From Squalus acanthias (taxonomy: Eukaryota), in contig JASTWF010000333.1 in assembly GCA_030390025.1 (NCBI GenBank), positions 124,001-188,000 of the forward strand: DNA of 64,000 nucleotides, written 5' to 3'. The notes under the pieces were generated by a model. It had not been told where the DNA came from. It was given only the letters and a program-made list of their open reading frames with translations, and made no database searches. This document shows positions 17,888 to 30,600 of this stretch, piece by piece; position 1 is the first letter of the stretch, and the number at the start of each line of letters is the position of its first letter. A program made the position numbers and the translations under genes.

Positions 17888-19160
17888 GGCCCTGAATTTG
17901 CGGTCGGCAGCATAGCTAAGGAGTACGCCACCAACATCCGAACGAAATCCGCACTTACCTCGTGCGAAGCCCCAAGTGAAAACTTGCTTTCAGATGCTGC
18001 GGAGCAGGGCACAGCGTAGTGGCTCACGGATCCCGGGGGGCGCACCATTGTGCATATGCGAACCTGGGATCACATGGGCCACTCTGCTCCTTTCACTCCC
18101 TGACTCTTAGCTAATCAGGAAACATAGAAATCTCCAATGAAACATAGAAACATAGAAACATAGAATCTAGGAGCAGGAGTAGGCCATTCGGCCCGTCGAG
18201 CCTGCTCCGCCATTCAATACGATCATGGCTGATCATCCAAATCCAGTACCCTGTCCCTGCTTTAATCCCCACAGTACACATATCCCACCCTACCCCTGTA
18301 ACCCCACGTATTTAATTCCCCCTAACATATCCCATCCTATCCCCATAACCCCACATATTTAATCCCCCCTAACACTAAGGGTCAATTTATCATAGCCAAA
18401 TCAACCTAACCCACACATTTTTGGACTGTGGGAGGAAACCGGAGCACCCGGAGGAAACCCACGCAGACACGGGGAGAATGTGCAAACTCCACACAGACAG
18501 TCACCCGAGGTCAGATTCGAACCCGGGTCTCTGGCGCTGTGAGGCACCAGTGCTAACCACTATGCCACCGTGTTGCATTAAGCTTTGCAGAAAGTTCATC
18601 TGAGCAGCTGACCTGGTTTATTTTTACTGTCACACTGCACTTTCCAACAGATTGCAGCATCTTTCTTCAATTCGCATAAGTTTTGATAAACGATTTGATG
18701 TCCCAGGCTTCGGCTTTTAAATTGCTGACTATTAAAAAAAACTAATTTACATTATTTAGCAGCCAGAAATGCTATTTTATTAATAAATTACGATCATTTC
18801 AATAATAACACACAAACCAAGATTTTAACATTAATAGAATTCAATCAAACACTGAAAAGGCTTGAGATAATTTTTACTAAAGGTGTCCTTAAAACCATAA
18901 AACTCAATTAGGATGCTTTTGATGGGCTGTAGCATAAACCTTGCTCAAAATTAATACAATGTTTTCATCCCCCCCACCCCCTTACGCTGTGCAGCAGCCG
19001 TAAAAATTCAGGGTAATTAATGCGCAGTAGGTGGGCAATTAGCCCAACTTTTCGCCAGCACGTTGATTTCAATGGGTAGGTGAAACGTGCGGAACTTGAC
19101 AGATTGCAAGTTCGGGATTTAGCGCATGCTATAGAGAGTACCGACCTCAAATTCAGGGCC
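17888..19160. mobile_element. MITE with 20-bp TIRs
   Basis: GGCCCTGAATTTGCGGTCGG / CCGACCTCAAATTCAGGGCC (19/20 match), flanks ATT/AAT. Confidence 0.8.
18140..18572 (-). mobile_element. HE1-like V-SINE nested in the MITE
   Basis: The minus strand has a tRNA head (GGTGGCATAGTGGTTAGCAC...GGGTTCGAATC), a V-domain (GTGTGGAGTTTGCACATTCTCCCCGTGTCTGCGTGGGTTTCCTCCGGGTGCTCCGGTTTCCTCCCACA), a CR1-derived tail and (TTTCTATG)n. Confidence 0.9.
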
Positions 19161-21210: not shown

Positions 21211-21717
21211 TTTTTACTCACTATCAATCACAGCATGAATTATCAAAGTTTGCATTTACAATGCAGCTGCAATATATCTAAATGCATGGGGATGGCGAAA
21301 AATTATCATAGCTCAAGAATTTGATATCAAAATTTCTGCTCTTAGCCCGTTCCCACTTTCCAGTCTTCCACTGTTCTGGGTAGCTGCATGGCGTCGGACT
21401 GTGTTTAAAACTGGATCTGACTCACCCACTACATATTTGTGGTAACTTTCCCTCTGTCCTATATTATTCTCTAAAGCCAGTCTGCTACTTGCTGCTACAA
21501 AAGCAAAATACTGCGGATGCTGGAAATCTGAAATAAAAACAGAAAACGCTGGAAATACTCAGCAGGTCAGGCAGCATCTGTAGAGAGAGAAACAGAGTTA
21601 ACATTTCAGGTTGATGACTCTTCGTCAGAACTGGAAAAAGTTACAGATATAACAGATTTTTAAGCAAGTGTGGGGCAGGGAAGGGGGGAGGGGGGAAAGA
21701 ACAAAAGGGAAGGTCTG

Positions 21718-21900
21718 TGTCGTAAGAATGAGCCTTACGCGTGGTAAACTTAATGTAAGCTTTAATCAACTTAAAACGGTGCTGCATACAAAAGAGGTCT
21801 TACCCTATGCCTCTTCCAGAGCTAACTGATCAGTCCAGTATTTATCCTGGACTGATTACAGGAAGTGATGTCATACAGGAAGCTGAAAAGTGTTACCACA
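21718..21900 (-). repeat. 3' LTR (183 bp)
   Basis: Identical to 25955-26137 and preceded on the minus strand by the polypurine tract GGGGGGGGAGAA. Confidence 0.97.
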
Positions 21901-21918
21901 TTCTCCCCCCCCAAAAGA

Positions 21919-24900
21919 TTAGGAGGCCGGAATGCTCCCTCCATTTCGTAGCCGTTGGATGAGGGAGAGCCGCACCCGTTTGGGTTCTCGTAGCGGTAGA
22001 GGGCCCCTAGCCCGTTTACCCGCTGCGGGCCATGGACCAGAGTCCGAGTGCTCCAGCCCGCTCTGTGAGGGGTCAGAACGATCCTGACCGTGTACTGGTA
22101 CCCGAATGGGTGTCGGGCAGGGCTGTGGCAGATCCGTTTCTGAGCGTACGGTACAGGGTTGATCGTGGCTGCGCGTGCGAGCCCCGACGGGCTCATAGTC
22201 AGTCTGCCCCAGGTCGGCACGCTGGAGTGAGGTACCAGCCGGCGTCAGATCCCGATCATGATGAGAGGCACCTGGCAAGCCCAGAGATGTGCCTGGTACA
22301 ATATCATCCCCTGGTGTCCCTCTATGTTTCGGCGGGCAGGGAGCCAGATCCCGCAATGACACGGTAGATTCCCGACCGTCAGGATACCGAATATAGGCGT
22401 AGGTAGGGTTGACGTCAGTGAGCTCAACCTCATCTACCAGGGGGTCATTCTTAGACGCCCGGACATATCTTCGGAGTAGCACTGGTCCCGGTGTAGTCAG
22501 CCACGACGGGAGAGATGTCCCATAGGATGAGCGACGCTGAAATCGGAAGAACCGTTCATGAGGCGTCGTATTTGTGGCGGTCGAAAGGAGGGACCGTGTG
22601 GAGTGTAATGCGTCTGGAAGTACTGCTTCCCATTGCTGGTTGGGTAGGCCCCGAGATCTCAAAGCCAGACGTACCGCATTCCAGATGATAGCGTTAAAAC
22701 GCTCGACTTGCCCATTCCCAACCGGATGATAAGGCGTCGTTTTGCTGGCAGCAATACCCCGTTCCGAGAGATAGGCCTTGAGTTCTCCCGACATAAAAGA
22801 AGGGCCCCGATCTGAATGAACATAGGATGCCATGCCACAGAAAGCAAATACCTGTTCAAGGCAGCTGATAACCGTGGTTGTCAGCATATTGGGGCAGGGA
22901 AAGGCAAACGGAAAACGAGAATACTCATCAACCATTGTTAATAGATAAGTGTTGCGAGTCGAAGAGGGCAACGGCCCCTTAAAATCGATGCTAAGCCTTT
23001 GCATTGGCTGGGTCGCATGTATGAGTATACCACCCGAGGGGCGGAAAAACCGAGGTTTCAATTCCGCACAGACTCTGCAGTCCGAGCACATCTTCTTTAC
23101 ATCCCCGGTAGAGAATGGGAGATTTCGGGACCGCACGAAGTGCAGCATGCGAGTAACGCCTGGATGACACAACCCATCATGGATGTCTACGAGCGTAGAG
23201 GGTGCCATGGCGGAGCAGAATGCTCGTGTGAGGGTATCCGGAGCCACATTCTCCTTGCCAGGTCGATAGTGGATGGTGTAACCAAAAGAGGCCAATTCCA
23301 GCCGCCAAAGCTGGATTTTATTATTTTTAATTTTGGTCCGTTTTCGATTATCGAGCATGAAGGCGACCGATCGCTGGTCCGTGATTAAGGTAAAGTGCTG
23401 GCGAGCCAGGAGATGACTCCACTTCCGTACTGCCTCTATGATGGCTGTAGCTTCTTTCTCGACTGGAGGATAATGTAGCTCAGCCCCTTGAAAAGTCCTG
23501 GACAAAAATGCCACCGGACGACCTTCCTGATTCAGAGTGGCTGAGATTGCCACCTCCGAGGCATCACACTCAACCACGAAAGGAAGACTCTCATCGATGG
23601 AGTGAAGAGCCGCTTTCTCCAACTGCTTTTTCAGGAGGTTAAAGGCTGCAACAGCCGTTGTGTCTAGTGGGAATGTGCTGGCCTTCAGTAGAGGTTGGAT
23701 TCGGTCCGAGAAGTTAGGAATCCATTTCGCATAGTATGCAAACAGGCCGAGGGCCCGGCGCAAGGAGGCCGGATTCTTAGGTGGCGGGAGTTCTTGGAGT
23801 GGGCGAAGCCTTTCAGGGTCAGGTTTAATGATGCCATTGCCCACACAATAGCCAAGGATGTTGATAGTTGGTTGTGACTCAATGGATTTAGCCGCATTCA
23901 ATGTCAAATTACGGTGCTGGAGTGCATCCCAAAATCGTTGGAGATTGGCGTCATGTTCCTGCTGATTGCGACCTGCGACAGTAATATTGTCCAGATAAGG
24001 AAACGTATCCTTCAAGTCTTCCTGTTTGACCAGGTCATCCATTGCTCGCTGGAAGACAGCCACTCCATTAGTGACCCCAAAGGGGAGGCGACGAAATTGA
24101 TACAGCCGCCCATTGGCTTCAAAGGCTGTATACTGCTTGTCTGAGACCTTCAAGGGTACCTGATGATAGGCGCTTTTCAGATCATAAGTCGAGAACACCG
24201 TGTACTCAGCCAATTTATTAACCATATCATCGATGCGCGGCAATGGGTATGCGTCCAAGTCCGTATACTGATTGATGGTCTGTGAATAGTCAATGCACAG
24301 CCGTTTCTTGTGAGGTTGTAGAGGGTTCTTAACAATAACGACCTGGGCGCGCCATGGCGACGAACAAGGCTCGATGATATCCTCTGCTAAAAGCCGAGAA
24401 ATCTCAGCCGCAATAAAAGACTGGTCTTCCTGACTGAAACGGCGTGACTTTGTTATAATCGGTTTGCATCGAGGAGGGATACTGGCAAACAGTGAGGGTT
24501 CATCCAGTGAAGCTGCTGACAAGGCACAGAACGGTAATCGAGGTCGTATATTAGAAATAGTGAGTTCAGGTTTGGATCCGCCGAACTCAATGGTAAGCTT
24601 CTTATGCTGCTTTTGAAAATCCAGCCCTAAGATAAGATCACTACATAAGTCCTTGAGCACCGAAAGCCGGGTGGAGGGATACCTGTGACCTTTAAGCATT
24701 ATTTCAACTACACAGAAGCCAGAAATTCTGGTATTAAGTGATGACTGAGCCATCGCAACTGCCTGGTCCGATGGAAAAACATGTAGCTTTAACTGTGCAA
24801 CAGTCTGTTCCCTAATGAAACTATCAGTGCTACCTGAGTCAATTAAGGCATCTAAAGTATGTCCATTAATTGATGTTTTTGTAGCTGCATGGAATAGATT

Positions 24901-25875
24901 CTGAGGACAAGCAGCTGTAATTGGTGTCGTTGCACAAAGAGTGGCTGAAATTCTAGGTGTGTTTCTTCGAGAAAAAACCCGAGAGGAAGCACGATAGTTT
25001 TTAGTTGGAACATCCTGATAGGCCCTTACTGGGGCAGTTCGGTAGGACTTAGCTTGATAAGCCCTCGTAGAGGCTCTTGATAGGCAAACCTTTACAAAAT
25101 GACCCTTTTTGTTGCAATGACTGCAAAACGCATTGCGAGCAGGGCAGAATCTCCGAGGGTGAAACTCATCACCACAAAAAAAGCATTTCTTAGATTGCCA
25201 AGAGGCTGCCACAGTGGGGTCATCATCCTCTTCATCAGTGAAGTCATCAGATCGATCGTCAGGGATAAAGTCCTCCCTAATAGAGTTCACCTGTGGCCTC
25301 TTAAATTGCCTGACTGTAGTTAAGGCAGCAGACCGAGGTCTGGGCACTGTAAAAAGGTCTGCATTTCTTTTTGCCAGATCTAGAGAGCAAGCCAGGTCAT
25401 AAGCTCTCTGCAGCTCAAGTGTCTTACTTTCCAGTAGACGCTGGCGTATAAATGGGGAGGCAAGCCCGCAGATGAACGCATCACGGATCATTTCTTCGCG
25501 GTATAGCTCAGCTGAGGCTGCCCGAAAGTTACAGTCCATACTAAGCCTGCGAAGCTCTTGGAGGAATTTATCAATGGATTCCTCCGGCCCTTGTTGGGCT
25601 GTAGCTAGTAGATGTCTAGCATAGACCTCATTCGGTGTCTTAGTATATAGTCTCTTAAGCGTCTGAATTGCCTCCTCATAACTGTCCCAGTCTTCCACAT
25701 ACTGAAATACATTCGGGGTGACACAGTTGATGAGTATCCGCAACTTTGAGTTATCATCAGCTTTGCAATACTCAAGAAAATTCTCAAACGTGCGATACCA
25801 GTGTTTCCACACCTTACCGGCTGCTGGGGTGTTTGGGTCCAAGTCAAGACGCGATGGTTTAAGGATGTTTTCCAT
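21919..25875 (-). CDS. Gag-Pol polyprotein, 1318 aa (Gag, zinc knuckles, protease, RT, RNase H, integrase)
   Basis: Zinc knuckles CFFC..H..C and CSHCNKKGHFVKVC; protease LIDSGS; RT DLKSAYHQ / LPFG / YLDN; RNase H CDAS / EKE / TDQ; integrase HHCC plus SIDF / HSDRG / VERFN. No stops or frameshifts. Confidence 0.97.
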   Translation of the reverse strand: MENILKPSRLDLDPNTPAAGKVWKHWYRTFENFLEYCKADDNSKLRILINCVTPNVFQYVEDWDSYEEAIQTLKRLYTKTPNEVYARHLLATAQQGPEESIDKFLQELRRLSMDCNFRAASAELYREEMIRDAFICGLASPFIRQRLLESKTLELQRAYDLACSLDLAKRNADLFTVPRPRSAALTTVRQFKRPQVNSIREDFIPDDRSDDFTDEEDDDPTVAASWQSKKCFFCGDEFHPRRFCPARNAFCSHCNKKGHFVKVCLSRASTRAYQAKSYRTAPVRAYQDVPTKNYRASSRVFSRRNTPRISATLCATTPITAACPQNLFHAATKTSINGHTLDALIDSGSTDSFIREQTVAQLKLHVFPSDQAVAMAQSSLNTRISGFCVVEIMLKGHRYPSTRLSVLKDLCSDLILGLDFQKQHKKLTIEFGGSKPELTISNIRPRLPFCALSAASLDEPSLFASIPPRCKPIITKSRRFSQEDQSFIAAEISRLLAEDIIEPCSSPWRAQVVIVKNPLQPHKKRLCIDYSQTINQYTDLDAYPLPRIDDMVNKLAEYTVFSTYDLKSAYHQVPLKVSDKQYTAFEANGRLYQFRRLPFGVTNGVAVFQRAMDDLVKQEDLKDTFPYLDNITVAGRNQQEHDANLQRFWDALQHRNLTLNAAKSIESQPTINILGYCVGNGIIKPDPERLRPLQELPPPKNPASLRRALGLFAYYAKWIPNFSDRIQPLLKASTFPLDTTAVAAFNLLKKQLEKAALHSIDESLPFVVECDASEVAISATLNQEGRPVAFLSRTFQGAELHYPPVEKEATAIIEAVRKWSHLLARQHFTLITDQRSVAFMLDNRKRTKIKNNKIQLWRLELASFGYTIHYRPGKENVAPDTLTRAFCSAMAPSTLVDIHDGLCHPGVTRMLHFVRSRNLPFSTGDVKKMCSDCRVCAELKPRFFRPSGGILIHATQPMQRLSIDFKGPLPSSTRNTYLLTMVDEYSRFPFAFPCPNMLTTTVISCLEQVFAFCGMASYVHSDRGPSFMSGELKAYLSERGIAASKTTPYHPVGNGQVERFNAIIWNAVRLALRSRGLPNQQWEAVLPDALHSTRSLLSTATNTTPHERFFRFQRRSSYGTSLPSWLTTPGPVLLRRYVRASKNDPLVDEVELTDVNPTYAYIRYPDGRESTVSLRDLAPCPPKHRGTPGDDIVPGTSLGLPGASHHDRDLTPAGTSLQRADLGQTDYEPVGARTRSHDQPCTVRSETDLPQPCPTPIRVPVHGQDRSDPSQSGLEHSDSGPWPAAGKRARGPLPLREPKRVRLSLIQRLRNGGSIPAS

Positions 25876-25954
25876 GATGGGTGATTCCCTGGATCCTTAG
25901 CTCCGAGTTCGTCCAAAAAGTTTGAGTGCGAAGTTTTTCAAAAGTTGATTAAAT

Positions 25955-26137
25955 TGTCGTAAGAATGAGCCTTACGCGTGGTAAACTTAATGTAAGCTTT
26001 AATCAACTTAAAACGGTGCTGCATACAAAAGAGGTCTTACCCTATGCCTCTTCCAGAGCTAACTGATCAGTCCAGTATTTATCCTGGACTGATTACAGGA
26101 AGTGATGTCATACAGGAAGCTGAAAAGTGTTACCACA
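25955..26137 (-). repeat. 5' LTR (183 bp)
   Basis: Identical to the 3' LTR; the minus strand carries a TATA-like GATAAATA and an ATTAAA signal. Confidence 0.97.
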
Positions 26138-26332
26138 GTCTGTGATAGGATGGAAGGCAGGAGAGAGTAAAGACAAAAGAGGTGATGGTGCAAGGCAAAA
26201 GGAGATGGTAATGGGACAAATTAAGAAACAAAAGATGACTCTCGATGAGGTGTAAATGGCAATGGCAGAATCATCAACAGCTGCCATGTGAGAGAAATAA
26301 ACAGAAAAGGAAAATAATATGTAAAAAAAAAA

Positions 26333-26871
26333 ATTCCACCACCTCCAGTGTGATCCCACCACCAAACACATCTTCCCCTCCCCTCCCCTTTCAGCATTCC
26401 GAAGGGACCGCTCCCTCTGCAACACCCTAGTCCACTCCTCTATCACCCCCAACACCCCTTCCCCTTACACTGCACCTTCCCACGCAAGCGCAGGAGATGC
26501 AACACCTGCCCTTTTACCTCCTCCCTTCCCACTGTCCAGGGCTCCTTAAGGTGAAACAGCAATTTACTTGTACTTCTCACAATTTAGTATACTGTATTCG
26601 CTGCTCACGATGCGGTCTCCTCTACATTGGGGAGACCAAACGCAAATTGGGTGACCACTTTGCGCAACACCTCCATTCAATCCGTAAGCATGTCCCTGAG
26701 CTTCCGGTCGCCTGTCACTTTAACTCTCTGCTCCACTCCCACTCTGACCTCGGCATCTTACACTGTTCCAACGAAGCTCAACGTAAGCTCGAGGAACAGC
26801 ACCTTATCTTTCGATTAGGCACTTTACAGCCTTCTGGACTCAACATCGAGTTCAACAATTTCAGACCATAA
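26333..26871 (+). pseudogene. Penelope GIY-YIG endonuclease domain (5'-truncated)
   Basis: AFRRDRSL, CNTC, FTCTSHNLVYCIRCSRCGLLYIGETKR, HFN, EQHLIFRLGTLQPSGLN; frameshifted. Confidence 0.93.
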
Positions 26872-29042: not shown

Positions 29043-29189
29043 ATTGAAAGGAAACTGCACATTGATTCTAATTCAGTCTTTGCTTACTCTAAAGGAACTA
29101 CAGAAAATCTGATCAAAATGAGACTAGAATCAATATTGGCTTCAGTGCAACGATAATAATGATATTCGCATTTTCCTTAACTTGGAGAT

Positions 29190-30600
29190 ATAAGAACATA
29201 AGAACATAAGAATTAGGAGCAGGAGTAGGCCATACGGCCCCTCGAGCCTGCTCCAGCATTCAGTAAGATCATGGTTTATCTTCGACCTCAAATTCACTTT
29301 CCCACCCTATCTCCATATCCCTTGATTCCCCTACAATCCAAAAATCTATCTCAGCCTTGAATATACTCAACAATTCAGCATCCACAGCCCTTTGGGGTAG
29401 AGAATTCCAAAGATTCACAACCCTCTGAGTGAAGAAATTCCTCTTTGTTCCAGTCTTAAATGGCCGACCGCTTATCCTGAGACTATGCCCTCTAGTTCTA
29501 GACTCTCCAGCCAGGGGAAACAAACTTTCAGCATCTACCCTGTCAATCCCCTTCAGAATCTTACATGTTTCAATGAGATCACCTCTCATTCTTCTAAACT
29601 CCAGAGAGTATAGGCTCAATCTCTCCTCATAGAACAATCCTCCCATCCCAGGGATCAATCCTAGTAACTACAGGCCAGTCAGTTTAACATCAGTGGTGGG
29701 TAAAGTTTTAGAAACAATAATCAAGGAAAAAATTAACGGGCACTTGGAGAGATCCGGCATGGACTCGATGGGCCGAATGGTCTCCTTCTGTGCCGTTATG
29801 ACTATGACTCTAGTGAACCTTCGTTGCTCCGCCTCTAAGGTAAGTATATCCTTCCTCAGATAAGGAGACCAAAACTGTGCACAGTACTCAAGGTGTGGTC
29901 TCGCCAAAGGCCTTGTACTCCAACCCCCTTGCAATAAAGGCCAACATGCCATTTGCCCTCCTAAATGCTTGCTGTACCTGGAGGTTAACTCTCTGTGTTT
30001 CCTGCACAAGGACACCTAAATCTCTCTCAATAACAACATTTAATAGTTTCTCACCATTTAAAAAAATATTCTATTTCTCTATTTTTCCTACCAAAGTGAA
30101 TAATCTCACCTTTCTCCACATTATACTCCATCTGCCACCTATAACCCATTCACTTAACCTGCCTATATCCCTTTGCAGGTGCTTTGTGTCCTCCTCACAG
30201 CTTACTTCCCACCTAGCTTTGTATCATCAGCAAACCTGGATACATTACACTCAGTCCCTTCATCTAAGTCATTAATATAGATTGTAAATATCTGAGGCCC
30301 AAGCACTGATCCTTGCAGCACCCCACTAGTTACAGCCTGCCAACCTGAAAATGAACTGTTTATCCCTAATCTCTGTTTTCTGTCTGTTAACCAATCCTCT
30401 ATCCATGCTAATATATTACACCCTACCCCATGAGCCCTTACCTTGCATAGCAACCTTTATGTGGCACCTTATTGAATGCCTATTGAAAATCCAAATATAT
30501 GACATCCACTGGTTCCCCTTATCTACTCTGCTAGTTACATCCTTGAAAAACTCCAATAAATGTATTCAACACTATTTCCCTTTCATAAAACCATGTTGAC
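29190..30600 (-). mobile_element. 5'-truncated CR1 LINE with deletions and a small inverted insert
   Basis: (TTCTTATG)n tail; [30 protein letters not shown] and QGSVLGP motifs. Confidence 0.9.

Follow-up and report, generated by a model that had tools for sequence, protein, structure and literature searches.

Tf1 is an element with a single open reading frame (ORF), and its self-primer is 11 nt long. Passages of the published accounts of Tf1, Tf2 and Tj1 describe a self-primer that lies in R of the long terminal repeat (LTR), pairs with the PBS (primer-binding site) and is cut by the reverse transcriptase (RT) of the element (PMC4600332, PMC5341516), and Tj1 is stated to have a stop codon after gag (PMC4600332). 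In passages of three papers self-priming is treated as established for Tf1 and Tf2, as supported for Tj1, and as predicted for the vertebrate sushi group, fungal relatives, the moss Tcn1 clade and the plant copia TAR lineage (PMC6317226, PMC6934838, PMC4600332). The subject here is a complete Ty3/Gypsy LTR retrotransposon of 4420 bp, found on the minus strand at positions 21718-26137 of a 64,000-nt stretch of Squalus acanthias DNA (assembly GCA_030390025.1, contig JASTWF010000333.1, positions 124,001 to 188,000 of the forward strand), the whole of which is called the window. Just behind its 5' LTR the element carries a site that is complementary to a segment of that LTR, and such pairs of segments change together across related elements of a compact animal Gypsy clade. 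Judged from the sequences compared, minus-strand synthesis across this whole clade is probably self-primed from the element's own RNA in the manner of Tf1.

The element was assigned to Ty3/Gypsy (Metaviridae type) by its TG..CA LTRs, target-site duplication, polypurine tract, pol order and domains (Table 1). The domain order of the gag-pol frame is gag, protease (PR), RT, RNase H and integrase (IN), Gypsy-type RT_RNaseH and Integrase_H2C2 domains are present, and the closest relative of the frame among solved structures is Ty3 Gag-Pol (E = 4e-59). The 5' LTR terminates in ...CTTACGACA, with its last base at 25955 on the minus strand, and is followed by A-TTTAATCAACTT. No TGG stands after the LTR, so the site cannot pair with the CCA end of a tRNA. 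The sequence-only reading had described an intact element with this site, an exact complement of the 12-mer 25953-25942 at 26009-25998 (12/12 nt, 44 nt apart), a CGTAAG...CTTACG hairpin in the loop, an overlap of the pairing segment with the poly(A) signal ATTAAA, and the lack of a chromodomain; the coordinates and letters were verified (the hairpin stands at 25976-25958, and ATTAAA, at 26003-25998, is the 3' end of the arm), as was the intactness of the element, with its identical LTRs, target duplication, polypurine tract and open frame of 1318 amino acids (aa). In the minimum-energy RNA fold of 25930-26020 (-18.6 kcal/mol) both arms are paired, with a z-score of -3.5 and none of 200 shuffles as good, and the loop between primer and PBS is predicted to be structured in a U5-IR-like manner by two hairpins, the second of which has a stem of six Watson-Crick pairs and one G-U pair. 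A variant LTR in contigs of sequencing runs has a one-base deletion at 26008, and 11 bp of pairing remain in it.

Table 1 Features of the element in the window and upstream arms of related elements
Feature	Position or locus	Strand	Basis or remark
5' LTR, 183 nt, TGTGG...ACGACA	25955..26137	-	183/183 identical to 21718-21900
3' LTR, 183 nt	21718..21900	-	LTR comparison
Target-site duplication CAGAC, 5 bp, upstream copy	26138..26142	-	same 5 nt at 21713-21717
Target-site duplication CAGAC, downstream copy	21713..21717	-	sequence
Polypurine tract GGGGGGGGAGAA, abuts 3' LTR	21901..21912	-	sequence
Single gag-pol open frame, 1318 aa	21919..25875	-	zinc knuckle, aspartic protease, RT, RNase H, integrase; no chromodomain
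Candidate primer-binding site TTTAATCAACTT, complementary to own LTR, no TGG	25942..25953	-	sequence, fold, shuffles
One-base spacer A between LTR terminal CA and primer site	25954	-	sequence
5' arm AAGTTGATTAAA, proposed self-primer; last six bases ATTAAA	25998..26009	-	exact complement of 25942-25953
Hairpin 1, GCTTA-CAT-TAAGT, directly 3' of arm	25985..25997	-	minimum-energy fold
Hairpin 2, CGTAAGG-CTCAT-TCTTACG, in U5, position of U5-IR-like stem-loop	25958..25976	-	minimum-energy fold
TATA-like ATAAATAC, 73 nt upstream of 5' arm	26075..26082	-	only such box in window LTR; function inferred
Upstream arm AAGTTGAATAAA	L031, L160		matched by own post-LTR sequence
Upstream arm TATTGTTGATTAAA	L156		matched by own post-LTR sequence
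Upstream arm CAAGTTTATTAAA	L037		matched by own post-LTR sequence
Upstream arm TAAGCTGTTAAAA	L032		matched by own post-LTR sequence
Upstream arm TTTAGCTAGTTAAA	L034		matched by own post-LTR sequence
Upstream arm TTTAGTTAGTTAAA	L036		matched by own post-LTR sequence
Upstream arm TGAGTCGTTTAAA	L035		matched by own post-LTR sequence
Upstream arm TTTAGTGGAATAAA	L041		matched by own post-LTR sequence
Upstream arm ATTATGTTGCTGATTAAAG	L043		matched by own post-LTR sequence
Upstream arm AATTTTGTGAATTAA	L053		matched by own post-LTR sequence
Upstream arm TAGTTTTGTTGGGTAAA	L162		matched by own post-LTR sequence
Upstream arm ACCAAATAGTTTT	L082		matched by own post-LTR sequence

The LTR and leader of the element gave 1187 first-look candidates in its own 3.7-Gb animal genome, and all 40 matches that were scored (40/40) were about 100 % identical, by which the window family is young, abundant and active in that genome. 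Because the copies are identical, no covariation can be read inside the family. A query with the RT-RNase H-IN region matched 1852 database proteins, and the best 120 of these 1852 were 54-89 % identical, the few with a named source being from shrimp, copepod, whipworm, tunicate, sea anemones, mussel and catshark; shorter matches added Nematostella, Hydra, soft and stony corals, a sea slug, a liver fluke, a spider and a stingray. Metagenome contigs scanned with an alignment of 24 relative proteins yielded 79 loci, 27 of them containing the gag start, and a scan of genome contigs yielded 26 loci, four with the gag start of the window clade. All 26 genome-contig loci proved to be eukaryotic contamination of bacterial bins, and the contigs of L156-L178 carry Gypsy elements of animal type. 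The protein alignment found no clade members in IMG/VR.

A second young family of the same clade (family 2; L153, L154, L155) was found on other contigs of the window's genome. Its frame of 1315 aa is 68 % identical at the protein level to that of the window element, many copies have open frames, the LTRs are 215 nt long and 99.5-100 % identical within the three copies examined, and the target duplication is GGTTG. BLASTN showed no DNA similarity between family 2 and the window element. The arm and PBS of family 2 are CAAGTTGATTAAA and TTTAATCAACTTG. Together, the window element, the three family 2 copies, the 27 metagenome loci and the four genome-contig loci make up a set of 35 elements with a readable 5' end, which share 45-75 % protein identity and have LTRs that are mostly unalignable. 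The build of the clade is one frame in 4-4.4 kb, with LTRs of 120-230 nt and TG..ACA ends.

In each of the 35 elements the 260 nt upstream of gag were scanned for the best helix with a 3' arm starting 0-2 nt from a CA. A helix with the element's own LTR was found in 31/35, 10-22 nt long with a loop of 24-68 nt, and in 27 of these 31 the site is preceded by CA and one A; the helix is purely Watson-Crick in 20/31, and a TGG-type tRNA site after the LTR was found in 0/35. When the versions were aligned from the inner helix end, 29 distinct sequence versions were obtained, in which positions 1-13 comprise 377 cells, 359 of them Watson-Crick, eight G-U and ten other. At each of positions 4-13 there are two to four Watson-Crick pair types among the 29 versions. 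Position 14 is paired in only 16/29, and the drop at this point sets the helix at about 12-13 bp. Upstream arms that differ from lineage to lineage are each matched by the sequence behind their own LTR (Table 1). Matched double changes separate elements with almost identical proteins: G-C to U-A between L040 and L037, C-G to U-A between L034 and L036, and U-A to A-U between the window element and L031. Different PBS versions also occur under one assembly prefix, namely the L032 type together with the L037/L040 type, and those of L055, L070 and L091. The protein tree had 25 rows; L082, L085 and L109 were excluded from it (less than 55 % of columns), and family 2, L156, L158, L160 and L162 lie outside it. 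Among the four elements with no helix, L104 has no LTR in view, and the other three are copies in which changes are left uncompensated: L061, whose LTRs are 93.9 % identical, matches at 10/12 positions; L094 belongs to the L032 family as a mutated copy, with its LTR pair not in view; and L102 is an unclear case, its LTR pair likewise not in view.

The frequency of such complements was assessed in a control set of 27 elements, with the requirement that the complement start in the first 4 nt of the post-LTR site. An exact complement of at least 10 nt with the element's own LTR was present in 20/27. Dinucleotide-shuffled LTR parts (200 for each of the 27 elements) gave at least 10 nt in 9/5400 and at least 12 nt in 0/5400, and the LTRs of other elements gave at least 10 nt in 34/702 comparisons, largely pairs sharing the same or a near-identical arm. 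When the segments from arm to PBS were folded, the arms were paired in 24/24 predicted minimum-energy structures. In most relatives a predicted hairpin of the GCCU..AGGU type, with varying letters, stands directly after the arm; this hairpin (25985-25997 in the window, in the same place in L031-L162) may, as modeled, indicate where the RNA is cleaved or where the poly(A) region lies.

The central proposal of the sequence-only reading, that the site does not serve a tRNA and that the element's own RNA provides the primer, thus gains support, at the level of sequence, from compensatory LTR-PBS changes in 31/35 related elements. We infer the following course for the RNA. Transcription would start in the 5' LTR, at or upstream of the 12-13-nt segment AAGUUGAUUAAA, and this segment would fold back over the 44-nt, two-hairpin loop and pair with the PBS one base past the CA. 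By analogy to Tf1, the RNase H of the element would cut directly behind the ...UUAAA with which the segment ends, leaving a 3'-OH from which the reverse transcriptase would extend by copying the spacer, U5 and what remains of R. The short strong-stop DNA would then jump to the 3' R, and plus-strand strong-stop DNA would copy the primer into a new PBS. Since the primer would be copied into the PBS in each cycle, the two segments would stay complementary and change together. The register of the helix also bears on this course, because the 3' end of a primer defines the U5 boundary and must therefore sit one base past the CA of the LTR.

Several points weigh against self-priming. To our knowledge no animal element has been shown by biochemical means to prime in this way. 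TATA-like boxes stand 73 nt upstream of the arm in the window and 90 nt upstream in family 2 (TATAAATA), and if they are used the RNA may begin 40-60 nt ahead of the arm, unlike in Tf1, where the primer starts at the first base; in the window the RNA would start nearer 26050 if the box at 26082-26075 is the one used. With the arm internal to the RNA, the primer would carry a 5' tail unless trimmed, which complicates plus-strand transfer. The 14 runs that hold the element are all Logan contigs and none is recorded as RNA (eight were guessed to be RNA), and the contigs of four runs (X1, X5, X9, X11) break in a DNA-like manner at the LTR ends 25955 and 26137-26141. A mismatch or a G-U pair occurs near the primer 3' end in L055, L079 and L109. 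The same 12-mer is found in the window element, family 2, L040 and L056 despite LTRs that are otherwise unalignable, and a constraint on the letters beyond pairing follows from this. Finally, the host tRNA sample comprised two anticodons, far too few isoacceptors for a test: 20 host tRNA genes, only Lys-UUU and Cys-GCA, match the PBS over 7 nt at most on either strand.

A TATA-like motif 45-95 nt upstream of the arm was seen in only 5/31 paired elements, belonging to three families, and a motif about 30 nt upstream in 0/31, with no conserved distance. Inside the LTR, the contigs of X1, X5, X9 and X11 showed neither the start nor the end of a molecule, nor a loose poly(A) end. Five contigs of about 4 kb (L031, L041, L043, L044, L053) were considered as transcripts and rejected, being circularly permuted assemblies.

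A helix between LTR and leader might serve a purely regulatory or structural role, for instance by concealing the 5' poly(A) signal or by acting in packaging or dimerisation, while another molecule is the primer. This would be in keeping with the hexamer that ends the arm in most relatives, with the retention of one 12-mer across unalignable LTRs, and with the G-U pairs tolerated in the older copies L091 and L082. We nevertheless regard it as unlikely: the register is fixed, with CA and one base in 27/31, exactly where the 3' end of a primer must sit; the site has no second known partner complementary to it, and TGG was found there in none of the 35 elements; and a pure Watson-Crick helix in fixed register with sharp ends is not expected if the pairing is kept for stability alone, and is better explained by copying of a primer into the PBS than by selection for stability. 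Somewhat less improbable is priming in trans or by the second copy of the arm, in which the PBS is paired with the arm of a co-packaged second RNA or with that of the 3' LTR region. The arm would be present at both ends of the RNA if the poly(A) site lies downstream of it; the short conserved loop of 24-68 nt with its conserved hairpins, by contrast, favors a local fold in cis.

Priming by a host RNA ending in ...AAGUUGAUUAAA, be it half of a tRNA, a fragment of one or some other small RNA, with the LTR copy incidental, is the least probable of these explanations. The commonest PBS version is common to distant families, and half-tRNA priming is described for Ty1/copia lineages in a passage of PMC6317226. 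Between lineages, however, the PBS can differ at as many as most of its positions, and in every case it fits the LTR of its own element, so a shared host primer cannot explain the pairing; the coexistence of different PBS versions under one assembly prefix also speaks against a host RNA. The tRNA matches noted above are short but come from Lys-UUU and Cys-GCA genes only. The tRNA gene search of the genome found 63 genes, and there is no tRNA gene within the window. The match to Lys-UUU appeared to be one of identity with the PBS and not of complementarity, the strand of the match not being recorded. Self-priming from the element's own RNA is thus retained as the preferred explanation in what follows.

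In most relatives the arm ends in ATTAAA, AATAAA, GTTAAA or TTTAAA. The succession of an ATTAAA/AATAAA-type hexamer and GCC suggests, from its letters, a poly(A) signal; the hexamer is GTTAAA, TTTAAA or GGTAAA in some lineages, and a role in polyadenylation is therefore uncertain. If the hexamer is the poly(A) signal, the R homology available for the first jump would be only about 10-30 nt. In HIV-1, which is primed by tRNA-Lys3, a 5' poly(A) hairpin occludes a signal which functions at the 3' end. That hairpin is local, whereas in the present clade the occluding partner would be the PBS, and masking of the promoter-proximal 5' poly(A) signal by the arm-PBS pairing is plausible. A further proposal, offered tentatively and somewhat doubtful as a whole, is that one segment of 12-13 nt acts as poly(A) signal at the 3' end and, at the 5' end, is sequestered by the PBS and then cut as primer, possibly inside R, and that tRNA-independent priming is recurrent and perhaps ancestral. 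If this were true, an internal segment tens of bases from the cap would call for one defined internal cut, or two, and copying of primer to PBS in each cycle would drive the concerted evolution of both sites. Priming without a tRNA would then be no quirk of the Tf1/sushi group, being used by a very widespread animal lineage, and the target of host defence by 3'-tRNA fragments would be removed.

The clade resembles Tf1 and Tf2 of Schizosaccharomyces pombe and Tj1 of S. japonicus in having no tRNA site, a short LTR segment complementary to the PBS, and a structured loop. The three yeast elements differ in belonging to the chromodomain-bearing Tf1/sushi group and in using the first bases of the mRNA as primer; the present clade has animal hosts, LTRs of only 120-230 nt, an arm that overlaps a poly(A)-type hexamer, a primer of 12-13 nt compared with the 11 nt of Tf1, and no chromodomain was found in it. 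With TATA-like boxes 73-90 nt upstream, the arm may moreover be internal to R, unlike that of Tf1. For the vertebrate sushi group self-priming was reportedly predicted by Butler et al. 2001. The sushi group (sushi-ichi) and the moss Tcn1 clade are alike in that self-priming has been predicted from LTR-PBS complementarity, vertebrates included, but these belong to the chromoviruses and have long LTRs (about 570 nt in the Sushi training set, as given in a table of PMC3601003). In the Ty1/copia TAR lineage of plants (Houba, Osr-1) self-priming has been predicted outside the chromoviruses by the same complementarity, according to a passage of PMC6317226; that lineage differs in superfamily, pol domain order and hosts.

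In build the closest likeness is to the Mag C-clade (SURL, Steamer), for which the relevant parts of the literature give compact elements of 4.4-5 kb with one frame, LTRs of about 170-190 nt, TG..ACA ends and, as in the present clade, a wide spread among marine animals (PMC8905726, PMC11046912, PMC6238403, PMC3601003). The Mag C-clade differs in its primer sites, described as a tRNA-Leu site TGGTGTCAGAAG in Steamer, C9 and C10 and as Asn in MchSLE1 (PMC8905726, PMC11046912), and the mosquito Mag elements differ in having tRNA Leu or Ser sites in the account of PMC3286476. The Steamer motif TGGTGTCAGAAG was absent from 109 loci, its 40 matches in the genome compare with 68 for the reversed control and are at chance level, and five IMG/VR matches to it were not retroelements. 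Locus L163 (3793-9555) holds a two-ORF Gypsy element with 167-nt LTRs and a PBS equal to the 12-mer printed for Steamer (tRNA-Leu); it was rejected as a stand-in for Steamer on account of its two ORFs, its PNMA-like gag and an identity of 30 % to the window element.

A chromodomain (PF00385) was found neither in the element nor in any of 24 aligned relatives (24/24), nor in the Pfam lists of the best 120 of the 1852 matches. Retrotrans_gag matches only 4/24 aligned relatives, and the only similarity-based names given to relatives refer to Drosophila elements ('pol polyprotein from transposon 17.6' or 'opus'), in no case to Tf2. A search of the genome for Chromo gave 16 matches, of which the five inspected look like host chromobox genes, and no chromovirus outgroup was found. 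Placement of the clade outside the chromoviruses is thus suggested by domain content and weak hints in the sequences rather than by a tree with named references.

Other features of the element and its relatives were recorded. RT motif C reads Y-L-D-N (window 23989-24000, ORF residues 627-630) and not the usual Y-x-D-D; YxDN is present in 20/23 rows of alignment A1 (FLDN in P0004) and, among the stored relatives P0001-P0240, in about 182 vs about 38 with YxDD. A full-text search on words for the YxDN motif returned only papers on BEL/Pao-type elements, as listed by title. Residues 1-90 of Gag match a second stretch 471-483 nt downstream in most relatives (loci L031-L109), the repeat in the window ORF comprising residues 1-90 and about 158-250, and this self-match in the sequence suggests that Gag is likely to be internally duplicated. 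The pol frame of L166, L167, L172 and L173 starts with a MYND zinc finger. Across cnidarians, flatworms, nematodes, molluscs, crustaceans, a spider, tunicates and cartilaginous fishes the RT-IN region of the clade is 55-77 % identical, and near-identical DNA of the window family is present in sequencing runs of six organisms; horizontal transfer of the family or the clade is possible.

Around the insertion, the upstream flank 26137-26250 reaches a summed contig depth of about 28,000 in three runs, from which it follows that the element was inserted within another high-copy repeat. A direct repeat of 119 nt with 77 % identity (18139-18257 and 29185-29303) brackets the region. An open frame of 124 aa adjoins the element at 26497-26871 on the plus strand; its motif resembles that of a GIY-YIG nuclease, and the frame may be a remnant of another mobile element.

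In the full-text literature searched, outside which lie most subscription journals and supplements, no paper was found that joins self-priming with Mag, SURL, Jule, the C-clade or other non-chromoviral animal Gypsy elements, and a prior remark could stand in Butler 2001, Volff 2001 or Repbase reports. The only co-occurrence of self-priming and such elements, in a part of PMC3601003, concerns chromoviruses. What is described here is therefore taken to be a new extension, by inference, of a known mechanism to a large animal lineage of wide distribution, in which the primer overlaps a poly(A)-type signal.

Self-priming is proven only in fission-yeast elements and is otherwise predicted for chromodomain relatives and one plant copia lineage. 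The same architecture is now seen in a compact Gypsy lineage without a chromodomain, backed by covariation across the clade, and this lineage ranges from cnidarians, flatworms, nematodes, molluscs, crustaceans and tunicates to sharks, so that the known range of tRNA-independent priming in animals would be widened. It would also explain why PBS finders based on tRNAs make no primer site calls for such elements; in one recent survey a tRNA site was present in only 1151/1512 Gypsy-type elements (PMC13524379). The clade would offer a natural system in which poly(A) signal and primer share the same bases. It bears on the idea, raised in a passage of PMC3601003, that self-priming preceded tRNA priming, and on host control via tRNA fragments, which such elements would escape.

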